A stretch of 64,000 nucleotides of DNA from Spirochaetia bacterium (GCA_963675665.1 OY776510.1:736001-800000); one strand, 5' to 3'; positions 6,050-55,525 are shown, counted from the stretch's first letter. Program-made: numbers and translations. The notes: a model not told the origin generated them from the letters alone.

Positions 6050-6186
6050 TCCTCCTATAAAAGAGTCCCGCATGGATGCGGGTTATTACGGGAAGAAGTT
6101 TGTGAAACAAATCTGCTTTGCAGATTTGTTTTTCAAACTTCAAGATAAAATTGAACATGGATGTTCAATTTTATCATTCCTCCTAT
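6045..6186. repeat. Three-hairpin intergenic element, copy 2, flanked by a 14-bp direct repeat
   Basis: CCCGC-ATGGAT-GCGGG (6067-6082); central hairpin 6095-6141; GATAAAATTGAAC-ATGGAT-GTTCAATTTTATC (6144-6175); ATCATTCCTCCTAT at 6045-6058 and 6173-6186. Confidence 0.9.
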
Positions 6187-27301: not shown

Positions 27302-28489
27302 CTAAATTTTAATATTCGGAGCATTATCCCTGGAAATGCACCGAAGCGGAATTTCAGGATATAATGATGTAAACGTTTTATATTTGGACGCTGAAAAATT
27401 CATGTCGCTCCATTTAATCTCATAAGCTTTCTCGCGGCGGATAATAAAATCGACTTCATGCTGTTTGGCGGTACGCCAAAATGCAATATCTTCTTCACGA
27501 TATAAATCCAGAAAAAATCTGAAAACTGTCTGCTCAAGCAGCGCTCCTTTATCAGGGCGGACAGCAAAAGGTGAAAAATCATTATAAAACCTGTTTCGTA
27601 AACCATGATCATTAAAATAGATTTTCGGCATTTTCGTCAGCTCTTTTCTCAAATTCGAAAAAAACGGTTTTACAACGGTTATATGACAGGAAAGCCTCAT
27701 GGTTCTTATATACGAATCAACAGTAAGTCTGTTTATCCCAAGTGTGCCTGCGCATTCATTCGAATTAAACAGACTTCCAATCTGTGTGCTTAAGATTCGC
27801 ATCAGGTATACATATTTATCCGTTTTTGTAACGCCTGCTTCCAATGCATCTTTTTTCACATATGAATCTGCCAGCTCGGTTAAAATATCCTGTTTCTCCT
27901 GTTCATCATCAGTCAGAATTACTTCAGGATACCCTCCATAAACAGCATACTCATCCAGCAGTTCATCAAGTCTGCGCTGAACAGGTATTGAGAACTGCCG
28001 GCCTGTATGGATTGCTTCGGCTTCTTCAAATTCCCGATATACAAGATATTCCCTGAAACTGACGGTATCAAGATTGAACAACCGCTTTCTGCCGGCAAGA
28101 GAATCGGTAAATTTTTCATCAATATAAAAACTTGACGATCCGCTGACAAAAAACCTGACTGAATCAGAATATGTATCATACAGATATTTTAAAAAATTGG
28201 ACGGATTATCAAGATACTGTACTTCATCCAGTAAAAAGTAAAAACGCGGTCCGTTTTTAGCCTGCAACGCAAATTTAAATAAATTCTCGGGATGTTCGTT
28301 ACACAATAAAAGCAATTCGGGATCTTCAAACGAAAGATAAGCATGAGGCAATTTTTCACTTTTCAGCCGGTTGCCGATCAGTTTCATTAATGTAGTTTTC
28401 CCAGTCTGTCTTGCCCCGATAAGCAGACATATTGTCTTTTTGGTCAAAAGATGATTTTCCAATGTCTCGAGAATGTTTCTTTTAATCAT
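27302..28489 (-). CDS. AAA_14-type ATPase with DUF4143 and C-terminal restriction-endonuclease-like domain
   Basis: GARQTGKTT, LDEVQ, SGSS, LAGR, YGGYPE, KIYFNDHG and EVDF...EIK. Confidence 0.9.
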   Translation of the reverse strand: MIKRNILETLENHLLTKKTICLLIGARQTGKTTLMKLIGNRLKSEKLPHAYLSFEDPELLLLCNEHPENLFKFALQAKNGPRFYFLLDEVQYLDNPSNFLKYLYDTYSDSVRFFVSGSSSFYIDEKFTDSLAGRKRLFNLDTVSFREYLVYREFEEAEAIHTGRQFSIPVQRRLDELLDEYAVYGGYPEVILTDDEQEKQDILTELADSYVKKDALEAGVTKTDKYVYLMRILSTQIGSLFNSNECAGTLGINRLTVDSYIRTMRLSCHITVVKPFFSNLRKELTKMPKIYFNDHGLRNRFYNDFSPFAVRPDKGALLEQTVFRFFLDLYREEDIAFWRTAKQHEVDFIIRREKAYEIKWSDMNFSASKYKTFTSLYPEIPLRCISRDNAPNIKI

Positions 28490-29704: not shown

Positions 29705-30316
29705 TTAATATACGCCTGCGGCCTGCGCAACACAGTTAAACATGTCCGATACCTCATTGTCCGTAAAGGCTTCAAGAATCGCTTCCTGCAGAAAAAACGG
29801 CTTGTTGTAATCAAAATATGAATACAGACTGATTAAAGATCTGGACATTCCGTCGTCGGAATCGGGCAGTCTTTCAACATGCCATACCCCCCGATATCCG
29901 TTAAGCGTCTGATCCAGCGACTTTGTAAGCACGCTCTCGAGCGTAAACATGCTTTCGGTGTTCTCAATAAAATTAAGATTTTCAATAAAACTGTATGAAC
30001 GTCCTATGCCGAAAACCTTATAGGAAACCAGTATTCTGCGGCTGATAAGAGCGCTGTTGTTTATTAAAACCCGGCTTTCCTTTACGCTCGGAAAAAGGTC
30101 AGCGGCGCCGTCAAGGTCGGACAGAACATCAACCAGGGTATTAAAATCAGCATCTAGAACAGCCCGGTATTCGGATTCCGAGACAAGGGTCTTTCCTTCC
30201 GGTCCGCGGCCCGATTCTATCCGCCTGCTTACGGATTCCGGCTTTATCCGGCCTTCAGCATAAAGATTTAAACCGAAAACAATGATAATTCCCAGAAATA
30301 TAAAACGTCTGAACAA
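29705..30316 (-). CDS. Secreted SRPBCC/START-like protein (paralog of 38750-39421)
   Basis: Signal peptide; YRGVWHVERL strand; C-terminal helix; colinear similarity to 38750-39421. Confidence 0.6.
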   Translation of the reverse strand: MFRRFIFLGIIIVFGLNLYAEGRIKPESVSRRIESGRGPEGKTLVSESEYRAVLDADFNTLVDVLSDLDGAADLFPSVKESRVLINNSALISRRILVSYKVFGIGRSYSFIENLNFIENTESMFTLESVLTKSLDQTLNGYRGVWHVERLPDSDDGMSRSLISLYSYFDYNKPFFLQEAILEAFTDNEVSDMFNCVAQAAGVY

Positions 30317-30533: not shown

Positions 30534-32297
30534 ATGAAAAGAATTTGCATAATATTAATATATATTGTCTCATTTTTTTATTATTCCTGTACCCAGTTCA
30601 TTCCTGAAGCGCCTATGGTAACATGTATAACACAATCGAATGACACAACACCAACATGGACCTGGAATATTCCGGCAGGAACGATTGCTTTTCGATACTC
30701 CTTTGATGAAAATGAATCCAACTGGACAGAAGTTGGAATTGAAACAACCAATTTTACAGTCAAAGATTGTTTAATTGATGGAGAATACAGCCTGTACGTA
30801 CAATGCAAAAACATTTTTGACCAGTGGTCATATAGCGGGTTTGATTCAATAACAGTATCCGAGAATAATTTTCTTACATCAATAGAATTTAATGAAACAC
30901 GATGCGGAATTGATTCAGAATCTGCTACAATTTTGTTTCCTTTCTGTGAATTAGACTATGAAGAAATTAATATATCATATAAACCTGATTCTTTAGGTCT
31001 GATTATCGATGGTAATGAAATAAGAGACGGCGACTCTTTCTTTTTAAATGATACAAATATTGATTCTGAAATTATAGTCAGCACGATTGACAGCAAGAAC
31101 AATATTCTTGAATACAGATTATTATTCACAAAACTTCCTGTAGTTCAATTCACTACCGAGAATCTAATAATGGATGCGTCAGATGTGTTTTCAAATTTTA
31201 CTATCTCTTCCTCTTCACTATTCTCCGAGACACATCAAAACCAATCTTTTTCTTCTGATTCTTTTATTCAGATCAGAGGAGCATCTTCACAATATGCGCC
31301 AAAAAAATCATACGCCTTCTGTTTAGCCGATGAAAATAATGTAATCTCCGCATCACTACTTGATATGCAGCCAGATACTAAATGGATTTTAGATGCATTG
31401 TATTATGATCTTTCTAAATGCAGAAATAAGGGATCACTGGATTTATGGTTTTCTTTAACTGATTTTCCTGATATTGATGAGGAAAAGAATAACAATAAAA
31501 TTGAAAGCTGCTATGTTGAACTGTTTTTAAATAATGAATATAAAGGATTATACGTATTAACTCAGCATATTGATGCAGAAATTCTAAAACTTTCTGAAAG
31601 AAACAATGATGATTCTGGTGCATTATATAAAACTATTGCCCATACCGGTGATTACAATCCAACGCAATTTGAGAACTATCGGGAATATGACCCCAATAGT
31701 CTATATTGGGACGGTTTTGAACAATCTTTTCCTGAAAATCCTTACTGGACGCCTATCTATGAATTGGTTAAATTTGTGTCTGATTCGGAAGATAATAATT
31801 TTAAATATGGTATTAAATATAAAATTGATATAGACAATGCAATTAATTATTTATTGTTTACAAATCTCATCCTAGGTATTGATAATCTCAATAAAAACAT
31901 TTTCTATATTAAACCTGATGAAAGTGAAAAACTTTTTTTAGCACCCTGGGACATGGATCGTTCCTGGGGAAGAAATGTCGAGCAAGCGCTTCCGGTTGAT
32001 TACGGAGTATGGTTGACAAACACCTTATTTGACAGATTAATTTCAACTGAATCAGATGATTTTAAAAATAAATTGAAAAGAAGATGGGAGTCCTTAAGAA
32101 GCACTACTTTTTCTGAGAATAATTTAATAAATATATTCCAGAACAATATTAATCTTCTTATAGATTCCGGAGCAGCAGAACGTGACGCAGAAACGTGGCC
32201 GGAACTCCAAACCAATCTCTCAGATGAGTTAACATTTATCGAATCATGGATTAGCGCCCATTTGATATATCTAGATAACTATATAAATGAACTTTGA
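30534..32297 (+). CDS. CotH-family kinase lipoprotein
   Basis: Lipobox YYSC; IRGASS...KKSY, VELFLNNEYKGLYVLTQ, DNLNKNIFY and PWDMDRSWG. Confidence 0.9.
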   Translation: MKRICIILIYIVSFFYYSCTQFIPEAPMVTCITQSNDTTPTWTWNIPAGTIAFRYSFDENESNWTEVGIETTNFTVKDCLIDGEYSLYVQCKNIFDQWSYSGFDSITVSENNFLTSIEFNETRCGIDSESATILFPFCELDYEEINISYKPDSLGLIIDGNEIRDGDSFFLNDTNIDSEIIVSTIDSKNNILEYRLLFTKLPVVQFTTENLIMDASDVFSNFTISSSSLFSETHQNQSFSSDSFIQIRGASSQYAPKKSYAFCLADENNVISASLLDMQPDTKWILDALYYDLSKCRNKGSLDLWFSLTDFPDIDEEKNNNKIESCYVELFLNNEYKGLYVLTQHIDAEILKLSERNNDDSGALYKTIAHTGDYNPTQFENYREYDPNSLYWDGFEQSFPENPYWTPIYELVKFVSDSEDNNFKYGIKYKIDIDNAINYLLFTNLILGIDNLNKNIFYIKPDESEKLFLAPWDMDRSWGRNVEQALPVDYGVWLTNTLFDRLISTESDDFKNKLKRRWESLRSTTFSENNLINIFQNNINLLIDSGAAERDAETWPELQTNLSDELTFIESWISAHLIYLDNYINEL

Positions 32298-32324
32298 GGG
32301 TCCCGATAAAAGAATATCAAGAAC

Positions 32325-34004
32325 TCATTGTAACTGAGTAATCAACTCCGTTCTTCGTTGAATCAAATATTGAAGTCTGTCGTCATAATAGTTGGTAAAC
32401 TGAATCCAGGAAACCTCATCCTCCACTGAAATATTATGCTGAATATCACATATTTCTTTTCTTTTTAAGAAAAATGATAATTCATATTCTGTATTTTGAA
32501 AAACAGCATTTAGATAATCTTCCGTTAAAATATTTTCCAATAAATTCAAAAAAATGCTTTTATATCTATTATATAAAAAGGAGTCCTCTTCAATTGCCTT
32601 ATCCAATATCATTTCATTGCAATAAACCAAACTTCCGGGTGTAAAATTTCCCCAATGCGGAGGCAAAAAAAGATCATCATAATCCCATGCTGAAATTAAA
32701 AAATATGGTTTATCATTTTCAATAATTCCAGGTAAACCATAAAAAAATATTTCATCTGAATAATCACCGTTCTGAACGAAAGTATTAAATGCTATCCAGC
32801 ACATATAACCATCTATATCCATTCTCTTGGAAAGTTCATCATATAATTCAGAACCAGAATAGCTATTTGATAAATCATAAATACTATTATATGTTTCAAT
32901 GTAATTTGATAAATCAATTTGTGCTGAATCGTAATAATATTTTAAATCATATTCGGGGTAATATCTTCTTCTTATTACAAACTCAACTTCCGGTTTTTTT
33001 CTTATAATCCCATCCTGAGTTTTTTCAACCAACATGTACATGCCTAAAGACTGATAATTAAACTCAACTTCAAATAATTTAAATGATGGGACAAACAACC
33101 CAAGCTCACTCAAAATTGTAAATGCCATATGATGGTTCAGATACCCGGTATCAGCATCCATAGATATAAGCAAGAAAGAATCTGCATATACATCTGAAAA
33201 CAGATTTGTATAGTCTCCGGATGGCAATCGAATTTCATAACTCTTACGATTGTACCCTAAAGAACTCGCACCATGAAGATTGATTTCAGCATCCTCAAAT
33301 ACATCATCCCTAAACTCAATATTTATTTCATGCTCGGCCGTATAATCATAACCCACAGGATTTGTTAATGATTCAACAGCATCCTGATCAGCAAATATTC
33401 TAATCTGCCTGTTGTCTTCAATTAATACTTTAACTATATAGTTTTTATATTCATTTAATTCATTTATTGTTCGAACATAAACTATATTTTCTCCGATCTC
33501 CAAATCTTGCGTAGGACGTATAATTTTATTCGAAGCACATTGCCATATATTAAATAATGAATTTATCTTATATTCAATCTCCAAATTGGTTTCAGAAAAA
33601 TCTAATATTGGTCGGTTATTGACTGTAACCAACATCAAGTCTCCCAATTCATTTTTTTCTTCATCAAATGTATTTATATTTATATTCTTAATTAATTCTA
33701 ATCCGTTTTTATTATATTTTACTTCAAAATTATAACTGCCATTTGCAGAAACCGGCGTTAAGATCAAATTGCTATCTGAATCCAGATCCTGCCAATCTTC
33801 ACTATTTATACGGAATTGTAAATCATCAGATAAAATAGTATTATCCCATTGATAAATAATTTCCTGTGTAACAGGTGAATAAAATCCAGATATAATCAGT
33901 TCATCGTTATTGTCCAGACTATGTTCTATTTTAAATAAATTACATGAAGAAAATAGTATCAAAATCAGAAGCCATCCAGGTTTTTTAAAATGACAGTATT
34001 TCAT
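32325..34004 (-). CDS. Second CotH-family kinase lipoprotein (variant catalytic loop)
   Basis: Lipobox FSSC; HGASS...RKSY, LGMYMLVEK, NGDYSDE and AWDYDDLF. Confidence 0.85.
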   Translation of the reverse strand: MKYCHFKKPGWLLILILFSSCNLFKIEHSLDNNDELIISGFYSPVTQEIIYQWDNTILSDDLQFRINSEDWQDLDSDSNLILTPVSANGSYNFEVKYNKNGLELIKNININTFDEEKNELGDLMLVTVNNRPILDFSETNLEIEYKINSLFNIWQCASNKIIRPTQDLEIGENIVYVRTINELNEYKNYIVKVLIEDNRQIRIFADQDAVESLTNPVGYDYTAEHEINIEFRDDVFEDAEINLHGASSLGYNRKSYEIRLPSGDYTNLFSDVYADSFLLISMDADTGYLNHHMAFTILSELGLFVPSFKLFEVEFNYQSLGMYMLVEKTQDGIIRKKPEVEFVIRRRYYPEYDLKYYYDSAQIDLSNYIETYNSIYDLSNSYSGSELYDELSKRMDIDGYMCWIAFNTFVQNGDYSDEIFFYGLPGIIENDKPYFLISAWDYDDLFLPPHWGNFTPGSLVYCNEMILDKAIEEDSFLYNRYKSIFLNLLENILTEDYLNAVFQNTEYELSFFLKRKEICDIQHNISVEDEVSWIQFTNYYDDRLQYLIQRRTELITQLQ

Positions 34005-34005
34005 C

Positions 34006-35823
34006 TTAATCGATCAATCCCATACTCAGACCGTCGCTTCCGGCATTATACCCAATACTATCACTTGTTAAACGATATCTGGAATCCATATTCGGTTCAC
34101 CGATAATATTATTTTGAAAAAGCTCATTGTAAGTTGATAGTAATGAATTATTTACACTAATTCTCATAGACGGATTCCAGTTGAATTGATGGAAATCCCA
34201 TATATCTTTTAAATTCTCAATTAATATACTGTTTTCAACAATCAAGCTTCCGCCGGAACCTTCCCAGGAATAATTATCTCCGTGTCGTATCCCGATTTCA
34301 TTTTCCATTATAAGGCAATGATCAATATCAACTCTATGCTCAACATTACTGTAACCCAATTCGATTCCCTGGCCACAATTCCTTATCACAGTATTATATA
34401 TAGTGTGCTGAATAACATCATTATCAGTACTAGTCAGAGCTAAACCCTCATGAAAACATGACTCTATCCAACAATTATTAATTGTTAAGTCGCCCATATT
34501 TCCACTGTCTATTCCATCATCCTTACAATTAATAATAACTGTGTTATTCAGTGTCGCGGTTGCTGATGCTGCAAAGTATAAAGCGTCATTATCGTTATCT
34601 ATATAATTCCTGCTGCTATCTGGAAAATCAAGCAAATAACTATTTTCTATTAACACATCAGAAGCGTTAAACTGACCGGCTGACTGTGCCCTTTGAATAA
34701 GTGAATTTTGAATAGTTACAGATGCTCCTGTTCCTCCAAAAGCCTGTGTTTTTGTATTAATAATATAGGAATTATTCAGTAATATTGTAGATAAATCCTG
34801 AAAAAAGAAAAGAGGCTGTCCCCCGGCGTGACCCCAGCTGTAATCTTTGGAATTCGCTCCACTATTTATAAAAATCGCTCCTGTTGCCGTAAAATCTGTA
34901 GTTGTGTCGCTAAAAATAAATCCGCCCCAATATTCTTCTTTCGAAGCAGAGGTGAAAACAACCGGGTTCGCGATTGTTCCATTAATAATAATATTGCCGT
35001 CACATATGAAATCAGCATTGTTGCTAACTTTTATAATTGTGCCTTCTTCTATTGTCAGAGTTTCCCCCGCAGGTATCTGCACATCACTTAAGATTGAAAT
35101 AAAACTAAATGAATTCCAACTTTGGGTTTCAATGAGACCTGCTTTTTCAATCCAGACAGGATTCTCGGTAAATGTAATTGCTTTCAGGTCGCTTGTTTCT
35201 GAGTCAATACTAACATCAAAAGATCCTACAGAAGTATTATGATCGTATAGAATAACAGAACCTACTCCTCTTTGTATTTCCAGTAATTCTGAGCTAAAAG
35301 AAAAGTCGGCATAATTATAAACAGGAATAATAATACTCGACTCTTTTATATTTACAATAATCGGAAGTGGCAAATTTACCGGATATGATTTAGGAGAAAT
35401 TACTTCGATTAAAGGCGTATTATAATCTGAAATTACCGGTATCGAATAATTTTTCAAATCAGGACAAGATAATCCCCAATCTGCCCATCCTCTCACCGGA
35501 TGTAATATTATAAATTGAACTTTTTCATAGTATTTCTGCCCATTAAGCAGATGTTCATAAAATATTTCCACTTCATAATAACCGGGTAAAGCAACCCGGT
35601 AAGAAGTATCTGGTTCTATGGATTCTCCATTAAGATAAATTTTATATGTATACTCAGCATTTGTATTTATTTTGAATAATACAGGCTCCCAGTATGAAAC
35701 CTTGTTTTCTACACCGGTCAATAGCGGCAAGACTTCTTCTTCATCCAATACTGACGACTGGTCAGAACAAGAATAAGAAAGTAAAATCAAGATAAAACAA
35801 ATTATGTATCTATAACGAAACAC
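34006..35823 (-). CDS. Lipoprotein with right-handed parallel beta-helix repeats
   Basis: Lipobox SYSC; GTIANPVVFTS, WGG, DNDNDALY, DDGID and repeated IxNs.i motifs. Confidence 0.8.
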   Translation of the reverse strand: MFRYRYIICFILILLSYSCSDQSSVLDEEEVLPLLTGVENKVSYWEPVLFKINTNAEYTYKIYLNGESIEPDTSYRVALPGYYEVEIFYEHLLNGQKYYEKVQFIILHPVRGWADWGLSCPDLKNYSIPVISDYNTPLIEVISPKSYPVNLPLPIIVNIKESSIIIPVYNYADFSFSSELLEIQRGVGSVILYDHNTSVGSFDVSIDSETSDLKAITFTENPVWIEKAGLIETQSWNSFSFISILSDVQIPAGETLTIEEGTIIKVSNNADFICDGNIIINGTIANPVVFTSASKEEYWGGFIFSDTTTDFTATGAIFINSGANSKDYSWGHAGGQPLFFFQDLSTILLNNSYIINTKTQAFGGTGASVTIQNSLIQRAQSAGQFNASDVLIENSYLLDFPDSSRNYIDNDNDALYFAASATATLNNTVIINCKDDGIDSGNMGDLTINNCWIESCFHEGLALTSTDNDVIQHTIYNTVIRNCGQGIELGYSNVEHRVDIDHCLIMENEIGIRHGDNYSWEGSGGSLIVENSILIENLKDIWDFHQFNWNPSMRISVNNSLLSTYNELFQNNIIGEPNMDSRYRLTSDSIGYNAGSDGLSMGLID

Positions 35824-36811
35824 AAATCTCCCCTGTAAGACTATTTACTATTGTGTTTAGTCTATATTCATAATTATACTGCATTTTTGTAGTTAAAAAC
35901 TTATTTAATTCAAAGGAAACACCTCCTCCGGTATTAATAAATGACTCATCAGATACTTTTGTTACACTATCGTCATAAAACTCAAATGTACAACAAATAG
36001 AAAATTTATTATATCTATATGAGAGTAAAGCCCCTCCGCCCCTCTTCCAATAAAAATAATCGTTCATAACGCTGGCAAAAATCTTCGATTCAAAGTATTC
36101 CAAAAGAAAACTAATGTCTTGAGAGTTATTTATTCCAAAAAAGAAATCTGTATATAATCCATGAGTAAAATTCTGCATTGGGATTTCCTTGAAAAATATG
36201 GAATCATATATATTATATCCAATTTTATACTTTGAATTCTTAAAAACCTTATCTTGAATGAAGATATTACCAACTAAAGAAAATGCTGTTTCGGCGCCAC
36301 CATCCAATAGCTCCTGATTATTAAATATTCCAATTTTATAACCTAATAAATTAAATACTTTCTTGCCATAGATTGAAACCCCAATATCTCGTCCCAGACA
36401 AAACTCATCTGTTATATTATAATGATTAATATATGTTCGCTCGTTATCCCCAAGAGAATATTCCTCGCCGAATGGTGTTTTATATTTTCCAATCTTAATC
36501 GAATGGTTTTTATTAATTTTTTTATCCAGATATATATCTTTTATTTTAAAAAAATAATCTTCATCATTTGACGAATTTGAAAAATCAATTTCGACATTTG
36601 CACTATAGCCGTCCTGAAATTTTAATTCTAATCCGGGTTGAAGTTCGCCCAGATGGAATTTTCCAAAGCCGTCGGAATCATAATACGAATATACTCCCGC
36701 CATATCAAATTTAAATTCCAATTCAAACTCTTCACTCTTATAAAAATTAATATCGGCAAAAAGAATATGACTGCAATTGATAATAAGCAGAATAAATATA
36801 AGTTTTCTCAA
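35810..36811 (-). CDS. Outer-membrane beta-barrel porin resembling phosphate-selective OprO/OprP
   Basis: Signal peptide; IKDIYLD, KIGKYKTPFGEE, GRDIGVSIYG and YKIGIFN. Confidence 0.7.
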   Translation of the reverse strand: MRKLIFILLIINCSHILFADINFYKSEEFELEFKFDMAGVYSYYDSDGFGKFHLGELQPGLELKFQDGYSANVEIDFSNSSNDEDYFFKIKDIYLDKKINKNHSIKIGKYKTPFGEEYSLGDNERTYINHYNITDEFCLGRDIGVSIYGKKVFNLLGYKIGIFNNQELLDGGAETAFSLVGNIFIQDKVFKNSKYKIGYNIYDSIFFKEIPMQNFTHGLYTDFFFGINNSQDISFLLEYFESKIFASVMNDYFYWKRGGGALLSYRYNKFSICCTFEFYDDSVTKVSDESFINTGGGVSFELNKFLTTKMQYNYEYRLNTIVNSLTGEICVSL

Positions 36812-37314
36812 GACTCATTACTCCTTCCCATCGTATGCTCCTCAAAATATTTATATATTCCGCCTCCATCTATTTCCAATCCATATGATCCGTTATAGGT
36901 ATCAGGTATATCATCAATACGATCTATTACATAATCTTTGCCACTATCTGTGTATATTAATATTATTGATTCTCCCATTTTTAATTTAAAATCAGTGCTT
37001 CCATTTTCTTCTTTTCCATCACAGATGACAACTTCAAAAGATTTTCCGGGAATTATGCTTCCTGAAGGGAATGTCCATTTTTCTCCGAGCAGATCATCAT
37101 TTAAAGATATCCTTGAAAGGTCAATTGCTGTTTCTGAGGAGTTATACAACTCTATCCAGTCATCCTCATCTGTGTTATTATTCGAATATTCATTTATAAA
37201 TAGTACTTTCTGAGATTGTAAGAATGAAAATTCTTTTTCCTCATAAAAAAAGGAACATCCTGATATAATAAAAACAAAAAATAATAGACTGTATTTTTTC
37301 AGATAAAACTCCAT
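36808..37314 (-). CDS. Lamin-tail-domain (LTD) lipoprotein
   Basis: Lipobox ISGC; LFINEY, DWIELYN, IDLS...LND, WTFPSGS and TDFKL. Confidence 0.88.
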   Translation of the reverse strand: MEFYLKKYSLLFFVFIISGCSFFYEEKEFSFLQSQKVLFINEYSNNNTDEDDWIELYNSSETAIDLSRISLNDDLLGEKWTFPSGSIIPGKSFEVVICDGKEENGSTDFKLKMGESIILIYTDSGKDYVIDRIDDIPDTYNGSYGLEIDGGGIYKYFEEHTMGRSNES

Positions 37315-37322
37315 TTTATTTA

Positions 37323-37958
37323 TTATAGCTCCTCCTCCGGAATATAAAAAATTCTTATCTTTGCCGTGTCCTGAAGAAAATCGATTTGATTAATCTCAAC
37401 TCTCGAAATTTCAAGTCCGGTTCGCGCAGATAGATCAGCGATTAATTCATCACGTCTTTCCGGAACAATGAGTTCAATTTTTTCATATAATATTATTTTT
37501 GTATAAATATTATTGAAAATTTTATGTTCAAGAAAAGCTGTAGAGGCAATGATAGTAATATTTGCAAGAAGCAATTCAGTATGACTGACGCTTTTATTTG
37601 ATAATGCATTAATCACACCAACACCAATAATAATAAACATATACGTCATTTCTTTTATTGCAATTTGAGAAGTACGATACCTTAATATCCCGAAAATCGC
37701 AAATAACCCTACCGCGAAACCCATTTCAACATCTACACTTTCAAGAAGAAAACATAATAAAAAGACAACTGTGCTTAAGAGGAAGAAAGTGAAAACATAA
37801 TTCTTATGTTTTTGTAATTCTACTCGCTGTCTTTTTTTTCTATAATAAATTGAGCAAATTATGAAAGTTACGATTAAATGAAATACTAATCTGACAATCA
37901 GTTCGAAAAAATCATCAGGATTAATTATTTTAATCCCTAAAAACCTGAGATTATCCAA
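37323..37958 (-). CDS. DUF4956-family membrane protein
   Basis: GFAVGLFAIFGILRYRT, KEMTYMF and ELIADLSARTG; about 4 TM plus soluble C-terminal domain. Confidence 0.88.
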   Translation of the reverse strand: MDNLRFLGIKIINPDDFFELIVRLVFHLIVTFIICSIYYRKKRQRVELQKHKNYVFTFFLLSTVVFLLCFLLESVDVEMGFAVGLFAIFGILRYRTSQIAIKEMTYMFIIIGVGVINALSNKSVSHTELLLANITIIASTAFLEHKIFNNIYTKIILYEKIELIVPERRDELIADLSARTGLEISRVEINQIDFLQDTAKIRIFYIPEEEL

Positions 37959-38724
37959 AAATTTCCTCCATTCCCTGAATTAATTTTATAATTTGTCTGT
38001 TTCGTTTTTTAAACCTGTTAGATTTTAAAAATGATGAATTTAGTATATTCTGTCCTAAACAATATTTACTTATCTTAAAAGGAAATATTCCTTCACTTTT
38101 CATATAGCGATAAAAATCGGTTTTTTGTCCTTTTGATTTAACTTCAATAACAGCCAAATTATTCAATTTAACTTTATTCCCTTTCATATGATAAGCAAGG
38201 TTATAATCAATTGTAACTCTTTCGTTAGAGTCGAAGTTTACTAAAGTAAACCGACTAAACTCAATATTAAACTGTTTTTCCAAATCTTCCGGCAGATATG
38301 GTGTTTTTTCCGTAATGAATTTCTCAATTATTTCAGAATTATCATTCGCAGAATTTAATTCTAACCTCTTCTTATCTACTCTTCCCACATTAGATTTAAA
38401 TTTTGATTCAATGAAACAGAGATCTGAATCCAGATACCTTCTTATACGAATTTTATACCTGTTCAATTTTTTATTATGATGTTTCAGATACATTTCACAA
38501 TCAGAAGTATCATAGTAAGTTGTAGAGTATCTAAAAACTCTTTTTTCATCAATTTCCAGTATTCTATATTGATTAATAAATCTTTTTAGCAGTTTTGGTA
38601 ATTTATCTTGACTAATTATAAATTTAGTATCAAATCTTTTCAGCAGAACTGCTGATTCTATTTCAATTAATGAAACAGGAGTAAAATCATTAAGAAATGA
38701 AATTTCATCACTGAGCAATTCCAT
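37951..38724 (-). CDS. VTC (polyphosphate polymerase / triphosphate-tunnel) domain protein
   Basis: KRFDTKF, YYDT, RYKIRIRRY, FIESK, ERVTID, IEVK and SKYC motifs. Confidence 0.9.
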   Translation of the reverse strand: MELLSDEISFLNDFTPVSLIEIESAVLLKRFDTKFIISQDKLPKLLKRFINQYRILEIDEKRVFRYSTTYYDTSDCEMYLKHHNKKLNRYKIRIRRYLDSDLCFIESKFKSNVGRVDKKRLELNSANDNSEIIEKFITEKTPYLPEDLEKQFNIEFSRFTLVNFDSNERVTIDYNLAYHMKGNKVKLNNLAVIEVKSKGQKTDFYRYMKSEGIFPFKISKYCLGQNILNSSFLKSNRFKKRNRQIIKLIQGMEEIFG

Positions 38725-38749: not shown

Positions 38750-39421
38750 TCATTTTTTTATTTCTGCAGCAACACTGTATACAGATTCAAAAATTTCCTG
38801 AGTTTCAGGTTTTGTAAATATTTTCATAATTGTATCCTGAAGCGGTATGGGATTATCAAACTGGGTTTCAGCATAACAGCGAATATAGGTGCGTGGAGCT
38901 CCATCGACAGATTCAAGGCTCTGCAGATACCAGAAACCTTCATATTCCTTAAAGTTACCTTCCTCGCAGTCTATCAGGCGCCAGTTCATTACAAACTCAG
39001 TTGAGGTGAACTTTACAACATTTACTATAGTTGTATAGATGTAATCCTGACCTATTCCCAGAAATTTCGCACTGGTATGTATTTTTTGGCGATGAGGAAC
39101 AGTTAAAGGATCTTCCGGATTAAGATCAACAGTATCAATCATTCTTTTAAACACTTTTTCACCGTTATCATGATCGGAAATTATCTCTGCGAGAGTTTTT
39201 AACTTAATATCGAAGACTGCATGAAAATCGGAGACTGCATGTATGCGTTTCTCGCCATCTTCACTTAATCGATTTATCCTAAGTGTAATTTCTTTTGCCT
39301 TCTTTCCTAATGAAGAAATATCTGCTCCAGGCGCTATTGAGTATTGTGAATTTAACGAGTACAAATTCACTGTAGTTAGTAATGTTAAGAAAAAAAGAAT
39401 TATTCTACATAAAAGTTTCAT
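38750..39421 (-). CDS. Secreted SRPBCC/START-like protein (paralog of 29705-30316)
   Basis: Signal peptide; FKEYEGFWYL; colinear with 29705-30316. Confidence 0.6.
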   Translation of the reverse strand: MKLLCRIILFFLTLLTTVNLYSLNSQYSIAPGADISSLGKKAKEITLRINRLSEDGEKRIHAVSDFHAVFDIKLKTLAEIISDHDNGEKVFKRMIDTVDLNPEDPLTVPHRQKIHTSAKFLGIGQDYIYTTIVNVVKFTSTEFVMNWRLIDCEEGNFKEYEGFWYLQSLESVDGAPRTYIRCYAETQFDNPIPLQDTIMKIFTKPETQEIFESVYSVAAEIKK

Positions 39422-41036
39422 TGCTTATTGTCATCTTTACTGATATTACTGCCTGAAAATCATTGAATACTGATTCGGGTTCATGATTAAAATTATTTAT
39501 GTTTATATATGCAAGATTTACACTTGCGCATAAAAACGGGAAGATTTCATAAGTGCCGTACAGACCTATAACAAGTTTGTATTCTGGAATACCTGTAGGT
39601 GTTTTTAATCCTGCAGCTTCCGCAGTTTCTTCATATTCAGTTGCAATTGTATTCCCGCCTTTTAGAATATAATCAGCCGTTAGTGCTGCTTTAATCATTC
39701 CAGGAATCGTATAACCTGCTTCAGAAGAAAATGCTATTGTATCAGGTCCATATTTATAACCTATAGGCTTATAGATGTTGACCCTTTTGTTAAGAATGTC
39801 CGATGATTCCCGATGAGACCATACCATACCGGCTTCAGGAATTTCCAGTAAATAACACCACGGGCTGGTGTATAAATATTCAAAATAAGCCGAGATATAA
39901 CCGGGACCAACAGGTAGTGAAAAATCTATTCCAAGCAAGTGCGCATCAGCATTCGGCGTGACGTTGACTTCACTTCCGTATTCGGCCTGTTCCAGTCCTG
40001 TACTTATTTCATCAAGCAGGTATTCTCCATAGAACTCTATACCGGACAGAGGAACAATACTGAACCCGGCAGTCATACAAATATTTGCCACGCTTATGTT
40101 TCCGTCTTCATCGGTAATCGGATGATTTCTGAATAGATTGTGGTATACAATTAAAGGATTAATAAACTGCAATTCAGTAGATTCACCGTAGAATAATGAA
40201 GATTCATTAACAGAAAGTGTAAATTTATCAAAAAATCGTGCTTCCAGCGCATGATCTACTTGATACCGCTGAGCCGGATCATAATCGGTCCAGCTTTCGA
40301 AATTCAGATATGTCCAGGTATAAGCAAAATTATCTGTATATCCCCGGATCTTAAAAAAATCATAATAGTCCGGATACGAAGACAGAAGCAGTTTTCCGTT
40401 TTTTCCATTGCCATATTCAAACTGATCTCTGCCTAATTGAATATTCCAGTTGCTGCCGCCGAATGAAAAAAAACCGCGATCCGGAAAATGGTAATTAAGA
40501 TCTCCAAACGAAACGGGCAGATTTGTATAATTTCCTTTATATTCTCCATCATCATCAGTATCAGTAATTATAAATCTGCTTTCTTCAAAATCGGGTTCCA
40601 TAACTGCATAGAACCCTTTGTTAAACCAGGTTTCTGCGGTAACTGTTAAAAAAGGCCGGCGATCTTCATAAGCATAATACCATTGTGTTTCATCATCGGA
40701 ACTATGAAGATAAGACTCAATAGAAGCTGCTATTGAAACATCCATTAAAAATCCATTTTCTTGATATATTCCGGAGTGTTCCAATAACTTCTCAAGCCGT
40801 TTCATCGCAATCTTGCCAGGTTGCGACAACTGTCCTTCGTCTATCTGTTCGATAATATTTTTTATTTGCGCCTCGGAAAAAGGCTTGACAGCCGATAGAG
40901 AACTGACCCCTGCTTCAGCTTCCAGAAGACTCATCAGGCTGTATATCTCAGAATCAATAGGAACAATTTTTTGATCGTTTGGGAAAAGTGAAAAAGGAAT
41001 TATTAATAATAAAAAAACAACCAGGAACTTATTCAT
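39405..41036 (-). CDS. Wzi (capsule assembly)-like outer-membrane protein
   Basis: Signal peptide; IQLGRDQFEYGNG...LLLS, YGEYLLDE and IGYKYGPD. Confidence 0.7.
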   Translation of the reverse strand: MNKFLVVFLLLIIPFSLFPNDQKIVPIDSEIYSLMSLLEAEAGVSSLSAVKPFSEAQIKNIIEQIDEGQLSQPGKIAMKRLEKLLEHSGIYQENGFLMDVSIAASIESYLHSSDDETQWYYAYEDRRPFLTVTAETWFNKGFYAVMEPDFEESRFIITDTDDDGEYKGNYTNLPVSFGDLNYHFPDRGFFSFGGSNWNIQLGRDQFEYGNGKNGKLLLSSYPDYYDFFKIRGYTDNFAYTWTYLNFESWTDYDPAQRYQVDHALEARFFDKFTLSVNESSLFYGESTELQFINPLIVYHNLFRNHPITDEDGNISVANICMTAGFSIVPLSGIEFYGEYLLDEISTGLEQAEYGSEVNVTPNADAHLLGIDFSLPVGPGYISAYFEYLYTSPWCYLLEIPEAGMVWSHRESSDILNKRVNIYKPIGYKYGPDTIAFSSEAGYTIPGMIKAALTADYILKGGNTIATEYEETAEAAGLKTPTGIPEYKLVIGLYGTYEIFPFLCASVNLAYININNFNHEPESVFNDFQAVISVKMTISNETFM

Positions 41037-41042
41037 AATCTT

Positions 41043-42437
41043 TTATATCGAATAGATTACTCCCAGGGAAATTGAAAAGATACCCTTATTATATTCAGAC
41101 GGGACCCAATATTGTATCATATTTACATCACTTTGTAATTCGACAGGCACATCAGTAAGCTCGAGAACATTCCAGATATAGCCTACTTCCAGGGCAGCGC
41201 TTATTTTCAGATCCGAAAGATCTATCTCCGGAAGACCGCGGGACACCCCGGCCGTCAACACCAGTTTTTTCTCCAGTACATCTGCATCGAGAAACTTCGT
41301 ACCTGCATCCGGTACCTGTGTCCACAATTCGTATTCCGACCATGGATTTGCAGGAGATTTGCTGCCTGATAAAGAGAACTCAACAGAAGTATATAATCCG
41401 ATATCAAACCACTCAGCAGTATAATCAGCCATAATTGTGAAATTATTCTCTCCGTTGTAGTACCCGATATAGTTATCCTCTAATTCAATAGGCATTATTA
41501 CGCCATTAGCATAATATGTTGCCTCCGGATAAAAACTGTAACCGTATTTATAATCAATTGAACTTCCGCCGGATGATTGAAAGGTATATTTTGTTGCACC
41601 TGCATGATACAGACCGACAATGCCGAAATTAAAATTATACCGGCATCCTGCCGACCATGCAATTTTATTCGGATTTTGAGAACTTTCCGGATTGAATATT
41701 GCATTGGCATTAAAATCATCTACTAAAACCTGGCCATATGCATAGAACCTTTCCGGCTCCCATTCAAGAAATAATCCCATAATTGAATTATCATTTCCGT
41801 CTACCTGCCAGGGTTTTCCGACAGAGACCCTTGTATACTGTTTGAAAAATCCAGGCAAAGGGTTTAAAAAATATTCGATATCAAAACTTCGTTCTGTATA
41901 GATCAAGGAATCCTGAAAGCCGAATTTGAAATCGCCAATATAAATTCCATAACTGTTATATTGCCATCCTCTTTCAGGAAAACCAAGAGCCGAATCACGA
42001 TTGAGCTCAGTCCATCGTGAAGTATAGAAGAAATTTCTATCATCATAACTGATATCAGCTAATAAAGCCGGGATAATTTTTGAGGAAACAAACAGACTAT
42101 ATGGCGAATCAATAGTATCATTTAAAGTCGTTCTTCCGAGTGTCACCGCCAGATCTTTCCATGTAAACTCAAAGCCTCCGTCCTCAAGAAAGAAGTAATA
42201 GCCAAAAAACAAGTCGTCACCATGCGAAGGCTGATATTTATTATCATTACAGACTGAAAGACTCCAGAAAAAATCTATATACTCATTGGTATGTCCAATG
42301 TCGAGAACACCGTACTGATAGAAGCTTTTTACGGAATTCAAATCATAAACAAAATCCGCTCCAGCTGAAACATCAAATGCGAATACATTTATTACAAAAC
42401 CTGTTATATAAAAAATTATAAAAATCAACTTTTTCAT
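41043..42437 (-). CDS. Second Wzi-like outer-membrane beta-barrel protein
   Basis: Signal peptide; VTLGR...SLFVSS, YGQVLVDD and IGYYNGEN; terminal amphipathic strand. Confidence 0.55.
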   Translation of the reverse strand: MKKLIFIIFYITGFVINVFAFDVSAGADFVYDLNSVKSFYQYGVLDIGHTNEYIDFFWSLSVCNDNKYQPSHGDDLFFGYYFFLEDGGFEFTWKDLAVTLGRTTLNDTIDSPYSLFVSSKIIPALLADISYDDRNFFYTSRWTELNRDSALGFPERGWQYNSYGIYIGDFKFGFQDSLIYTERSFDIEYFLNPLPGFFKQYTRVSVGKPWQVDGNDNSIMGLFLEWEPERFYAYGQVLVDDFNANAIFNPESSQNPNKIAWSAGCRYNFNFGIVGLYHAGATKYTFQSSGGSSIDYKYGYSFYPEATYYANGVIMPIELEDNYIGYYNGENNFTIMADYTAEWFDIGLYTSVEFSLSGSKSPANPWSEYELWTQVPDAGTKFLDADVLEKKLVLTAGVSRGLPEIDLSDLKISAALEVGYIWNVLELTDVPVELQSDVNMIQYWVPSEYNKGIFSISLGVIYSI

Positions 42438-43573
42438 TTTATTCTCTTTTTCCAGGAAATTATCGTTCCCTTCCAGTTAATAGTTCTTGTCAGTACGGCG
42501 ATAAAAAAACTTTGAACATAGATAAATGGATATAATAAAACGGATACAAACAAGCCCTTCCAATATCGTGTATTGACAGGACCTGTAAAACCAAGCAATA
42601 TCGAAGATAAAAATAAAAAGCCATACATAACCGACGGAAAAATAAAGAAAACCGGATTTAAAATTCCCAAAGGTATGCTTAACAAACAAAATGCTGTGAT
42701 AATCATTAATGCTATGAAACTCGTTTGGGCAAATCTGTTCTCTGAAAAAACAGCTCCCGCCGCCCAACGAACAGCTTGATTTGTATGTTCATTCCAGGTC
42801 CTTTTATGAACCGTTTCGATAAATGAATCGTCATTAAATAGAGCTCTGATTTTGTACTTTCCGGCAGTATTCACTTTTGAGATCAATTCTGCATCTTCTG
42901 TTGCTGAATGAAGAAGGCATTCATAACCTCCTACTGATAAATATGTTTCTTTTCTGATTGCAAGGTTATTTCCAAAGCAGCCTATAGGCTTGCCCAGACC
43001 AATCGCACCAAACGCAAACAACATCCTGAAAAAATGATCAAAATTCTGAAATCTGCAGAGGACATTGTTCTCACCCGTAAGAGTCAGCATCCCACAGACA
43101 ACTCCGGTTGAAAGATTGGAAAAAGCTTCTACCAATAACTCTGCCCAACACTCTCCCGCTTCACAATCAGCATCTGTAAATACAAAAAGTTCTCCTTCTG
43201 CCTGTTCAATTCCCTTAAGTAATACATTCACCTTGGGATTAAAAGCTCCCGGCGACTCAGTATTTGCAATAACTTTAATCTTCAGATTCGAAGCAGTATG
43301 AAAATTATTCATCAGCTTTAAACTTTGATCTTCGGATCTGTCGTCGATCAGAATAATTTCCAGGTTTTTATAACTTTGGTTTTCCAGAGATGTAAATAAC
43401 CTGGGCAGGTTTTCCGCTTCATTTCGGGCCGGTATAATGATTGATATAAAAGGCTGATAATCCTTATTAATGCCGTTTATATTAGCTCGTTTCTTTTCCA
43501 ACGACAAACCCAGTGCGACAAAAAAAGTAAGGACAATAAGTACTGCTGATATTAATAATATAAATATATGCAT
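42434..43573 (-). CDS. Membrane GT2 glycosyltransferase
   Basis: SIIIPARNE, DDRSED, FTDADC, TED and QAVRW motifs. Confidence 0.88.
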   Translation of the reverse strand: MHIFILLISAVLIVLTFFVALGLSLEKKRANINGINKDYQPFISIIIPARNEAENLPRLFTSLENQSYKNLEIILIDDRSEDQSLKLMNNFHTASNLKIKVIANTESPGAFNPKVNVLLKGIEQAEGELFVFTDADCEAGECWAELLVEAFSNLSTGVVCGMLTLTGENNVLCRFQNFDHFFRMLFAFGAIGLGKPIGCFGNNLAIRKETYLSVGGYECLLHSATEDAELISKVNTAGKYKIRALFNDDSFIETVHKRTWNEHTNQAVRWAAGAVFSENRFAQTSFIALMIITAFCLLSIPLGILNPVFFIFPSVMYGFLFLSSILLGFTGPVNTRYWKGLFVSVLLYPFIYVQSFFIAVLTRTINWKGTIISWKKRIK

Positions 43574-52082: not shown

Positions 52083-52421
52083 CTAAAAATTATAGATTAA
52101 AATGCCGCATACTATTACTGACAATCCAAAAATTCTTATCCTGTTAATTTTTTCTTTTAAAATTACCCTTGAGAATACAACTACAAAAATATAATTCATT
52201 GGAAGCAAGAGGATCATCACTTTTAACGGCAGGATTCTATATGCAAAAAGGTTAATTAATGTTACCGATACAAGAATAGCATACCCGGAAATAGTCCAGA
52301 TGTTGAATAAGGATCTTATTAGTGAATGCCTTATCTTTTTTTTTGCACCAATTTTAAGAGATATTTGACTTAAGGCTGTCATCAATACACCGACAAATGC
52401 AAGAATTTTATAATAAATCAT
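52083..52421 (-). CDS. Small EamA/SMR-like transporter (ArnE/F-type flippase subunit)
   Basis: 112 aa, 4 TM; SQISLK and ILKEKI...G. Confidence 0.72.
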   Translation of the reverse strand: MIYYKILAFVGVLMTALSQISLKIGAKKKIRHSLIRSLFNIWTISGYAILVSVTLINLFAYRILPLKVMILLLPMNYIFVVVFSRVILKEKINRIRIFGLSVIVCGILIYNF

Positions 52422-52793
52422 CTATTTATTATCCTTATATGATAAAGAATAGATAATTACCCCAATACCTATGGTAAAAACGCCAATTATATTATTTATA
52501 CTAACCGGTTCATTAAAAATCAAATAACTGCAAATTAAAAGAACTAAATATACAAGACTTAGAAAACAGTATGCAAATGATAATTCAAATTTTCTCAGGA
52601 CAACCTGCCAACAAAGAGCCTGAAAAATTAACGCTAAAAAAGATAAAAGATACCAGTAGTTGTGTACAATATTGTTAAAACTGTAATTATCAAGCCTTGT
52701 TGCAGCTATTTTTATTAAAACCAAAGATGCTGATTGAAAAAAAACCGATAAAACAATAAATAGAAAACTTATCCTGCTTTTAAGTTCTTCCAT
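52422..52793 (-). CDS. Small EamA/SMR-like transporter (ArnE/F-type flippase subunit)
   Basis: 123 aa, 4 TM; WQVVLRKFELSFAY...IFNEPVS. Confidence 0.78.
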   Translation of the reverse strand: MEELKSRISFLFIVLSVFFQSASLVLIKIAATRLDNYSFNNIVHNYWYLLSFLALIFQALCWQVVLRKFELSFAYCFLSLVYLVLLICSYLIFNEPVSINNIIGVFTIGIGVIIYSLSYKDNK

Positions 52794-53460
52794 AATAATA
52801 CCACAATCCTATTTTCTCCGGCAGGAATCCTTGTCTGATATAAAATTTTTGTGCTGAAAGATTTACTCCCTGTGTGGCAACAGAAATAATATCATATCCC
52901 ATTTTTTTCGCCCAAAATTTTGCATCCTCTATTAAAGCGGCAGCAAAACCATGCCCCTGATATTTTTTTAAAACACCTAATAAACCAATCTGTATTGTTC
53001 GATTCTTAATATATTTTAAAGTAATAAAACCGACTATTTTATTTCCATTTTTTTTAATTATGCATAAGTCATCAAATTGCCCAAGTATTGCATTCTCAAC
53101 CCATTTCGCATAAAAATTTTTATATTGGTTTGAACCAAAATAAGAATTATTATATCTGCTATAAATAAAAACCTCTTTTGCAATATCTATAATAATGTCG
53201 CAATCTTTTTCTGCGGCTATTACCGGTTCCCGTGTTCCGGTCTTATCAATATTCATTAAAAAATCTATTCTGGTATCAATATAATGAAAACCTATTCTTT
53301 CCAGTTTTAAAATATATCCGGTATTCTTTATATCACAACAACATTGAACAAGATCATACCTTTCCAAAATTTCTATAAACAGGTTTTTATCATCATCTTC
53401 ATCGATAGAACCTATTTCTTTTTTAAAGAATTGACTGTCCCATTCCAATTTTCTTATCAT
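52780..53460 (-). CDS. WecD-like dTDP-amino-sugar N-acetyltransferase (GNAT)
   Basis: LEWDSQFF, SRY, FYAKW, IGLLGV...QGHG and VATQGVNLSAQKFY. Confidence 0.85.
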   Translation of the reverse strand: MIRKLEWDSQFFKKEIGSIDEDDDKNLFIEILERYDLVQCCCDIKNTGYILKLERIGFHYIDTRIDFLMNIDKTGTREPVIAAEKDCDIIIDIAKEVFIYSRYNNSYFGSNQYKNFYAKWVENAILGQFDDLCIIKKNGNKIVGFITLKYIKNRTIQIGLLGVLKKYQGHGFAAALIEDAKFWAKKMGYDIISVATQGVNLSAQKFYIRQGFLPEKIGLWYYYGRT

Positions 53461-54368: not shown

Positions 54369-54375
54369 TAATATC

Positions 54376-55518: not shown

Positions 55519-55525
55519 GTTCTCC

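Follow-up and report, generated by a model that had tools for sequence, protein, structure and literature searches.

In a 64,000-nucleotide stretch of DNA from a Spirochaetia bacterium (GCA_963675665.1, OY776510.1:736001-800000; the window hereafter), seven genes encode a stand-alone protein of the VTC (triphosphate-tunnel) family, an inner-membrane protein of the DUF4956 family, an outer-membrane beta-barrel of the OprO/OprP family, one lipoprotein with a lamin-tail domain (LTD), one with a right-handed beta-helix, and two related to CotH kinases (CotH_A and CotH_B). From sequence comparison, structural models and the analogy with yeast, we tentatively propose that polyphosphate is placed in the cell envelope by a split polymerase of the Vtc4 type, acting with a partner in the inner membrane and a pore in the outer one, a proposal to which we give slightly less than an even chance. 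The core would be a two-gene enzyme, made up of a cytoplasmic Vtc4-type polymerase and the inner-membrane DUF4956 protein, which in bacteria with two membranes would be joined by a barrel (an OprO/OprP-family porin here, a DUF2490 protein in Bacteroidota). The CotH kinases and the LTD and beta-helix lipoproteins would be optional, lineage-specific exported additions to this core.

The VTC protein covers almost the whole Pfam VTC profile (positions 1-233 of 235; 92.2 bits against a cut-off of 23). A search of solved structures with the single sequence gave no match, and a profile built from 27 homologues reached yeast Vtc2 and Vtc4 (E 1.8e-04). Its AlphaFold model (predicted local distance difference test, pLDDT, 89; predicted template-modelling score, pTM, 0.86) contains no membrane helices, and in a Foldseek comparison its top matches were structures of Vtc4 (3g3r, 7ytj and 8i6v; E about 4e-13, TM 0.62-0.63), followed by Vtc3 and Vtc2 and only then by YgiF (2.3e-09) and other triphosphate-tunnel enzymes. 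In the profile alignment, from which native Vtc4 numbering was obtained by adding 185 to the chain numbers of 3g3q, residues K34, R93, R95, K108, E194, S219 and K220 correspond to Vtc4 K200, R264, R266, K281, E426, S457 and K458, and all seven are invariant in 27 of 27 sequences. The stretch around Y359 and R361 could be aligned to Vtc2 only; there R158 is invariant and matches the arginine, and the tyrosine position is occupied by phenylalanine in the bacterial consensus. According to one yeast cryo-electron microscopy paper, catalysis is impaired in Vtc4 R264A/R266A/E426N, and according to another, K200, R264, R266, K281, R361, K458, S457 and Y359 are all required for cellular polyphosphate. 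The latter paper gives K458 as the sole one of these residues to differ in the non-catalytic subunits Vtc2 and Vtc3, and at this position the bacterial protein carries the Vtc4 state, lysine. Judged by fold and residues, the VTC protein thus looks like a cytoplasmic, catalytic polyphosphate polymerase of the Vtc4 type and not like a generic triphosphatase, in support of what an earlier note on this DNA had claimed.

The comparison with yeast has clear bounds. The bacterial protein shares with the yeast VTC complex (Vtc4/Vtc3/Vtc1) the catalytic tunnel fold and the phosphate- and metal-binding residues, including the Vtc4-specific lysine, and in both a soluble catalytic domain would work at a membrane. 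Whereas the yeast catalytic subunit has an SPX domain and a fused C-terminal membrane domain, the 257-residue bacterial protein is the VTC domain alone; its membrane partner is instead a separate protein of an unrelated family, DUF4956, without a solved look-alike, and the bacterial form adds an outer-membrane barrel. With neither an SPX nor a fused membrane domain, it does not belong to the eukaryotic complex type, and the likeness extends at most to a Vtc4-like way of working.

The DUF4956 protein matches its Pfam family across nearly the full profile (156.9 bits; positions 3-169 of 169). More than 7,849 relatives were found in the protein collection, with 52-59% identity among the 119 relatives listed, of which the named ones are all from Bacteroidota save one bin labelled Euryarchaeota. 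The model (pLDDT 79) consists of five helices (residues 14-42, 48-75, 79-95, 101-118 and 126-147) and a C-terminal beta-alpha-beta-beta domain (152-206), and the family has an invariant RYRT..IKEMTY motif (R93, R95 and K102 of DUF4956). Because the loop following helix 1 is strongly basic, the positive-inside rule suggests that the N-terminus faces out, and the motif and the C-terminal domain are therefore predicted to be cytoplasmic, on the same side as the VTC protein. When a complex of the two proteins was predicted from a separate alignment for each, the score was 0.00, which counts neither for nor against binding.

Searches for remote kin of DUF4956 gave little. A sequence search against solved structures returned no match, a search for look-alikes in the structure atlas returned nothing usable, and there was a weak, sub-threshold match to the 5TM-LYT sensor domain (E 0.017). 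A search of longer proteins for DUF4956 fusions gave four matches, none of them with VTC. The two fusions to DUF2490 (P0149 and P0150, about 500 residues, from metagenome gene calls) were set aside as probable merged calls across overlapping genes, because an inner-membrane protein fused to an outer-membrane barrel is implausible. A 2025 mBio paper on Streptococcus intermedius labels the DUF4956-type homologue MgtC-like with an ACT domain. We found no Pfam MgtC match to the DUF4956 protein even at E<=10, and an hhalign comparison of the DUF4956 alignment with E. coli YhiD (Pfam MgtC 5.4e-39) gave a probability of 0.07%, so that MgtC kinship is not supported, with the limit that the alignment is of low diversity and a very distant kinship is possible.

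The pairing of VTC with DUF4956 is widely conserved. We examined the best 80 loci of a genome scan, all from Bacteroidota, in which the DUF4956 relatives are 46-56% identical to the window protein; 519 flanking open reading frames (ORFs) were clustered and the cluster representatives scanned against Pfam. In 73 of the 80, VTC is the gene immediately upstream of DUF4956; in one more it stands 1.6 kb upstream, and in the others it is either cut by a contig end (three) or absent from the sequence examined (three). Among the 42 complete loci, those with at least 4 kb on each side, VTC is present in all 42, a DUF2490 barrel in 31 and CotH in 15. Over the full set the DUF2490 barrel occurs in 55 loci, usually as the gene right after DUF4956, and 19 loci, with two more cut by contig ends, encode a CotH kinase domain next to the pair; CotH was counted with a profile for the kinase domain, a single-sequence phmmer search having caught only 2 of the 80. 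Proteins of about 140-150 residues without a Pfam family recur near the pair, usually just upstream of VTC, in clusters spanning 40 and 20 loci.

Eight of the Bacteroidota loci (106 proteins) were annotated in full and fall into two architectures. In architecture A, whose loci of named order are Flavobacteriales, a CotH-LTD fusion with a type IX secretion system (T9SS) sorting tail is followed by a small protein, VTC, DUF4956 and DUF2490; in architecture B, from Bacteroidales and Prolixibacteraceae, VTC, DUF4956 and DUF2490 come first and a CotH lipoprotein follows. A membrane histidine kinase (His_kinase family) and a LytTR response regulator are encoded downstream of CotH in five of the eight (L013, L038, L048, L068 and L078, all of Bacteroidales type), in four of them directly after it with at most one small ORF between, and a few genes further on in L038. 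These Bacteroidota loci, of which B. thetaiotaomicron BT3498-99 is an example, are the closest sequence relatives of the window locus and have the same order of VTC, DUF4956 and barrel, often with CotH. They differ in that their barrel is DUF2490, remote from the window porin, in that architecture A fuses LTD to CotH and exports it by T9SS whereas LTD in the window is a separate lipoprotein, and in the LytS/LytTR-type pair after CotH, which has no counterpart in the window. In four architecture A loci (L009, L010, L012 and L014, of which L010 and L012 are labelled Flavobacteriales) further T9SS-tailed proteins are encoded upstream of the pair, namely arylsulfotransferase-like proteins, a two-component regulator propeller (Reg_prop) and a C25 peptidase, which suggests that a larger set of surface proteins travels with the module in these loci.

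Plasmid records extend the pairing beyond Bacteroidota. Six regions were opened and five annotated. On a Deinococcus plasmid VTC precedes DUF4956, beside a HAD acid phosphatase and phnDCEE; on Aminobacter and Shinella plasmids the order is DUF4956 then VTC, followed by a phytase-like gene; and on a Nitratireductor plasmid DUF4956 then VTC occur with an inorganic phosphate transporter (PiT) and a phytase-like protein. In all four genera the two genes are adjacent, with overlaps or gaps of 1-23 nt. A plasmid record of Pseudoalteromonas sp. CuT4-3 (L082 7141-9519) carries an LTD gene, a VTC remnant, DUF4956 and a full-length Porin_O_P porin (2.4e-47). The remnant is a 104-residue ORF, overlapped by the LTD gene and matching only the C-terminal 45-67 profile positions; here the polymerase gene seems to be truncated while its partners persist. 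CotH is absent from all five annotated regions. VTC and DUF4956 are accordingly near-obligate neighbours across phyla, even where their order is reversed, which bears out the expectation that the families co-occur, and because the same families recur in 80 related loci and in plasmid records of three other phyla the association exceeds chance.

The barrel is the third recurrent component, as the earlier note had supposed in making the porin part of the system. The window protein matches Porin_O_P with 32.1 bits (cut-off 20.9) over residues 52-155 of 333, and the match is found in 26 of 29 aligned homologues. The profile of its family, a small one with 23 representatives at E<=1e-10, reaches OprO (4rjx, E 0.0022) and OprP (2o4v, E 0.03) in weak matches that cover little of the barrel, and an NCBIfam scan of the barrel returned only a sub-threshold match to porin_ExtI. 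The likeness to the Pseudomonas phosphate and pyrophosphate porins OprO and OprP consists of this partial Pfam match and the weak profile match; they differ in length (411-429 residues, against 333 in the window), and it is the N-terminal third of the window protein that aligns. The window barrel family is also a remote relative (hhalign 94%, E 1.3e-07) of the DUF2490 barrels found in its place in the Bacteroidota loci. A 2026 preprint describes DUF2490 as a signal-peptide-bearing outer-membrane barrel without known function. The Porin_O_P porin of Pseudoalteromonas is full-length and lies with LTD and DUF4956 as in the window.

In the mechanism that we propose, the VTC protein would polymerise phosphate from ATP at the cytoplasmic face of the inner membrane, by analogy with yeast VTC, in which synthesis is coupled to passage across a membrane. 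The growing chain would be handed to DUF4956, presumably in direct contact, through the invariant arginine and lysine cluster and the C-terminal domain, both predicted to be cytoplasmic. The polymer would then move outward to the periplasm and possibly, through the barrel, to the cell surface. Exported additions would act at its place of arrival, either upon the polymer, together with it, or upon the surface polysaccharide of the adjoining gene cluster. With a cytoplasmic synthase, a partner in the inner membrane and a pore in the outer one, the layout is reminiscent of synthase-dependent exopolymer secretion.

The plasmid neighbourhoods also speak for phosphate hoarding. Here the porin would admit phosphate, pyrophosphate or polyphosphate, and the VTC/DUF4956 pair would store polyphosphate, either on the cytoplasmic side of the membrane or in the periplasm, with CotH, LTD and the beta-helix protein belonging functionally to the neighbouring polysaccharide cluster. 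The phosphate-economy genes beside the pair in Deinococcus, Nitratireductor, Aminobacter and Shinella favour this, as do the phosphate-porin family of the barrel and the role of yeast VTC in phosphate storage. It accounts neither for the repeated presence of exported CotH and LTD proteins next to the pair, seen in Bacteroidota, in Firmicutes and in the window, nor for the grouping of LTD, DUF4956 and porin in Pseudoalteromonas; moreover, according to a review, polyphosphate kinase 1 (PPK1) already provides bacteria with cytoplasmic polyphosphate storage. We regard hoarding as an unlikely account of the window locus.

Both CotH proteins of the window look, by sequence, to be active kinases. They match Pfam CotH with 153 bits (CotH_A) and 88.7 bits (CotH_B) against a cut-off of 23.8, and CotH_A also matches Bacillus cereus CotH (5jd9, E 3.6e-05). 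CotH_A has an aspartate, an asparagine five residues on (+5) and a second aspartate at +23, spaced as in 5jd9, the 23-residue interval being that between D228 and D251 of B. subtilis CotH; CotH_B keeps both aspartates, with a glutamate in place of the asparagine that most relatives have. In the published work on the B. subtilis enzyme, mutation of D228 or D251 inactivates the kinase, ATP is used in vitro, and the protein acts with ATP in the mother cell on CotB and CotG. The Bacillus spore-coat kinase is thus of the same family and has both catalytic aspartates in common with the window proteins, which differ in being lipoproteins with extra N-terminal domains. CotH_A and CotH_B are only 25% identical across 118 residues and are therefore not a recent duplication.

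The other two lipoproteins can be placed less closely. The LTD lipoprotein scores 49.6 bits against its Pfam family (cut-off 34.3) and resembles the LTD region of the CotH-LTD fusions in architecture A (6.1e-19, profile positions 510-659), which suggests that the free LTD lipoprotein works with CotH. The beta-helix protein has no sequence match in the Protein Data Bank (PDB); its look-alikes in the atlas fall in Big_2/Beta_helix_4 clusters, mostly from Bacteroidota, with scores up to 0.90, and serve as a lead only. It is probably pectate-lyase-like and glycan-active. The roles assigned to the LTD and beta-helix proteins in the earlier note, that of presenting substrate, were guesses.

One further step beyond our proposal would make the exported polyphosphate the phosphoryl donor of the envelope CotH kinases. 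Such a step would fit the catalytic aspartates retained in both window proteins, the finding that all CotH relatives beside the pair are exported, with lipoprotein signals or T9SS sorting tails, and the presence of CotH beside the pair both in a share of the Bacteroidota loci and in Gram-positive ones. We know of no kinase of the CotH fold that uses polyphosphate. CotH is missing from 27 of the 42 complete loci as well as from the plasmid regions, the ATP use of B. subtilis CotH in vitro points the other way, and in S. intermedius the VTC-gene mutant did not behave like the CotH mutant, and the DUF4956-type and CotH mutants shifted Pel in opposite directions. We consider a donor role, attractive as it is, unlikely for the window; and since CotH is optional, present in 15 of 42 complete loci and in none of five annotated plasmid regions, feeding it cannot be the core purpose of the VTC/DUF4956 pair, which had been the central idea of the earlier note.

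Relatives of the module have been described in Gram-positive bacteria. Whitfield et al. 2020 report genes for CotH, a polyphosphate polymerase, DUF4956 and DUF4832 contiguous with pel operons of streptococci, clostridia and bifidobacteria, and guess at protein phosphorylation as the function of these pel-adjacent genes. Lepp et al. 2010 reported VTC-domain genes and CotH in NELoc-2 of Clostridium perfringens. The only functional data found come from the 2025 mBio paper, which states that in artificial sputum medium aggregation dropped to less than half when the S. intermedius DUF4956-type gene or CotH was deleted, that the Pel level went up in the former mutant and down in the latter, and that the three-gene synteny was not found outside the Pel locus. 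The trio loci described here are not next to pel, and the S. intermedius knockouts do not fit a simple linear pathway. A 2023 review covers only eukaryotes in its survey of VTC domains and credits bacterial polyphosphate synthesis to PPK1. In the literature searched we did not find the form of VTC/DUF4956 with an outer-membrane barrel. The gene trio is thus already in print for Gram-positive pel loci, and three points go beyond the print found: an outer-membrane barrel recurs as the third component, the trio also occurs away from pel loci, and single residues argue that the bacterial VTC protein is Vtc4-like.

The S. intermedius pel accessory genes SIR_1591-1594 comprise the same trio (a secreted CotH, a polyphosphate-polymerase-domain protein and a DUF4956-type protein) beside an exopolysaccharide cluster, and the fourth, glycan-active protein is a TIM-barrel hydrolase with DUF4832 where the window has a beta-helix. 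Compared with the Gram-positive pel loci, the window locus, from a cell with an outer membrane, adds a phosphate-type porin, the LTD lipoprotein and a second CotH, and its neighbouring polysaccharide cluster is not pel. In NELoc-2 each VTC-domain gene is followed by one for a membrane protein of about 225 residues, with CotH and a glycosyltransferase nearby; the locus is Gram-positive, duplicated around a resolvase gene and lacks a porin. From their size and position we infer that these membrane proteins, annotated 'tubulin/FtsZ', are DUF4956.

Such settings raise a different possibility, that the module is an accessory unit of polysaccharide production in which the glycan, or proteins that assemble it, would be the substrate of CotH, the part of VTC and DUF4956 would be regulation or sensing, and the beta-helix protein would trim the glycan. 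The window module abuts a co-directional polysaccharide cluster of at least 25 kb, the trio adjoins pel loci with a glycoside hydrolase and has a glycosyltransferase nearby in NELoc-2, and the S. intermedius mutants alter Pel amount and aggregation; the pectate-lyase-like look-alikes of the beta-helix (again a lead only) and the ACT-like C-terminal domain that those authors ascribe to the DUF4956-type protein would fit too. Polysaccharide genes are, on the other hand, not consistently adjacent in the eight annotated Bacteroidota loci and are absent from the annotated plasmid regions, and invariant Vtc4 catalytic residues would be unexpected in a mere sensor. We hold this account to be decidedly unlikely.

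Several observations weigh against our own proposal of polyphosphate export. OprO and OprP are known as uptake pores, and the window barrel matches Porin_O_P across only about one third of its length. Among solved structures, none of a channel or transporter is like the DUF4956 model (nothing in the PDB matches its fold at E<=0.001), and one five-helix monomer cannot by itself make a pore; of the split synthase-translocase that had been suggested for this locus, the gene pairing of VTC with DUF4956 and the Vtc4-type residues are supported, and the channel role of DUF4956 is not. The pair in Deinococcus and Alphaproteobacteria sits with genes of phosphate-uptake and phosphatase type and lacks both CotH and barrel, a context that fits phosphate storage as well as export, and the 27 complete Bacteroidota loci lacking CotH also count against the proposal. 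The inferred equivalent of Y359, reached via the Vtc2 alignment only, is phenylalanine in the bacterial family, and the yeast Y359F mutant yields less polyphosphate. For the S. intermedius VTC-gene mutant, the text available reports no change comparable to those of the two neighbouring mutants. Finally, in the literature searched we found no demonstrated activity for any bacterial VTC-domain protein.

All seven ORFs of the window module are intact, and its gene content and positions are as the earlier note gave them, down to the Pfam families (Table 1). The six minus-strand genes are as tightly coupled as had been described, overlapping or standing at most 8 nt apart: VTC and DUF4956 overlap by 8 nt, DUF4956 and LTD are 8 nt apart, LTD and porin overlap by 4 nt, porin and beta-helix by 14 nt (provided that the GTG at 35823 is the start), and 1 nt separates the beta-helix gene from CotH_B. 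CotH_A and CotH_B are convergent, with 27 nt between their stops. Five of the seven products carry export signals. Four, including both kinases, have a signal peptide ending in cysteine (CotH_A ..FYYSC, CotH_B ..LFSSC, beta-helix ..LSYSC, LTD ..IISGC), in agreement with the lipoproteins originally proposed; we take only that of LTD to be a canonical lipobox, the other three presumably fitting looser patterns. The signal peptide of the porin is of the ordinary kind, and the VTC protein lacks both a signal peptide and a hydrophobic N-terminus.

Table 1. Genes of the module and of its upstream context in the window.
Feature	Position	Strand	Evidence or remark
CotH_A, CotH-family kinase lipoprotein, 587 aa	30534..32297	+	Pfam CotH 1.8e-44
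CotH_B, CotH-family kinase lipoprotein, 559 aa	32325..34004	-	Pfam CotH 6.8e-25
Right-handed beta-helix lipoprotein, 605 aa	34006..35823	-	Pfam Beta_helix 2.3e-10
OprO/OprP-family outer-membrane beta-barrel, 333 aa	35810..36811	-	Pfam Porin_O_P 9.8e-08, residues 52-155 only
Lamin-tail-domain (LTD) lipoprotein, 168 aa	36808..37314	-	Pfam LTD 5.9e-13
DUF4956 inner-membrane protein, 211 aa	37323..37958	-	Pfam DUF4956 5.1e-46
Stand-alone VTC (triphosphate-tunnel) protein, 257 aa	37951..38724	-	Pfam VTC 4.7e-26
Secreted protein without known family, 223 aa	38750..39421	-	Between polysaccharide cluster and module
Wzi-like outer-membrane protein, 464-aa secreted protein and multi-pass GT2	39405..43573	-	Upstream context, end of polysaccharide cluster

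The six minus-strand genes form the tail of an unbroken same-strand run of polysaccharide biosynthesis (from 38750 to at least 63911), whose products include sugar-nucleotide enzymes, six glycosyltransferases and a Wzi-like protein along with other polysaccharide functions. Within the part at 39405..43573 there are matches to Caps_assemb_Wzi (1.4e-05, below the curated cut-off) and to GT2 (5.8e-25, with Glyco_transf_21 and Glyco_trans_2_3). Between GT2 and the module stand the genes for the Wzi-like protein and the 464-residue protein without a family (39405-42437, minus strand), two apparent outer-membrane proteins that may serve either the polysaccharide or the module. In G+C content (GC) the seven genes (27-35%) fall below the adjoining polysaccharide genes (38750-43573; 36-38%) and below the housekeeping flank (mostly 45-50%), which marks the module as foreign DNA that may have arrived independently of the polysaccharide cluster. 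Two paralogous genes for secreted proteins without a family, at 29705-30316 and 38750-39421 (both on the minus strand; 26% identity, E 2e-20), bracket the module, the former core-like in GC (45%) and the latter island-like (36%). Neither has a Pfam or NCBIfam match, and the two are possible markers of where the module inserted.

It could be argued that the seven genes are no more than chance neighbours brought together by horizontal transfer, with no common function. They form the lowest-GC stretch of the island, CotH_A lies on the opposite strand, and a promoter scan found nothing exceeding shuffled sequences. Overlapping start and stop codons and the recurrence of the same families together in four phyla and in published Gram-positive loci oppose this, and we consider it highly improbable.

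Genes for Lgt and an LptF/G-like permease lie in the left flank, and the latter match suggests that the host has an outer membrane with lipopolysaccharide. Terminator-like sites numbered nine against 3.9 expected, all inside genes, and no tRNA was found at the island edge. A match to the TD-2 RNA (Rfam; 49.2 bits against a gathering threshold of 48.7, E 2e-04), a family described from Treponema, lies at 6066-6179 (plus strand) between the Lgt and FapA-domain genes and hints at a spirochaete host. Just beyond the island, a gene for an AAA_14/DUF4143 ATPase (27302-28489, minus strand) has 38% GC among housekeeping genes of 45-50% and was possibly also acquired. Further into the polysaccharide run, two adjacent half-size EamA-like membrane proteins of 112 and 123 residues (52083-52793, minus strand) stand beside a GNAT acetyltransferase, a GT2 and a DegT aminotransferase (52780-55551), and a 580-residue DUF6044 protein (4.5e-153) lies next to these. 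We presume that this group resembles an ArnE/ArnF-type flippase pair with an amino-sugar lipid-carrier pathway.

If the proposed polymerase is active, a bacterial Vtc4-type enzyme would be a new synthetic route to polyphosphate beside the PPK enzymes, and would hint that the eukaryotic VTC enzyme has a prokaryotic counterpart or source. If the polymer truly leaves the cytoplasm, this would be the first described route of polyphosphate secretion in bacteria, and would offer a testable answer to where exported kinases of the CotH/Fam20 type find their phosphate in a compartment that has no ATP pool. The furthest-reaching version, a third, VTC-type bacterial polyphosphate route in which a trans-envelope machine of cytoplasmic polymerase, DUF4956 conduit and barrel of the phosphate-porin family fuels ATP-independent phosphorylation of surface protein or polysaccharide by surface kinases, we think quite unlikely. 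The module lies repeatedly by loci for biofilm or surface polysaccharide, among them the streptococcal pel loci and the disease-associated locus of C. perfringens, and may thus bear on aggregation and host interaction; DUF4956 itself is a family of more than 7,849 relatives with no known function.

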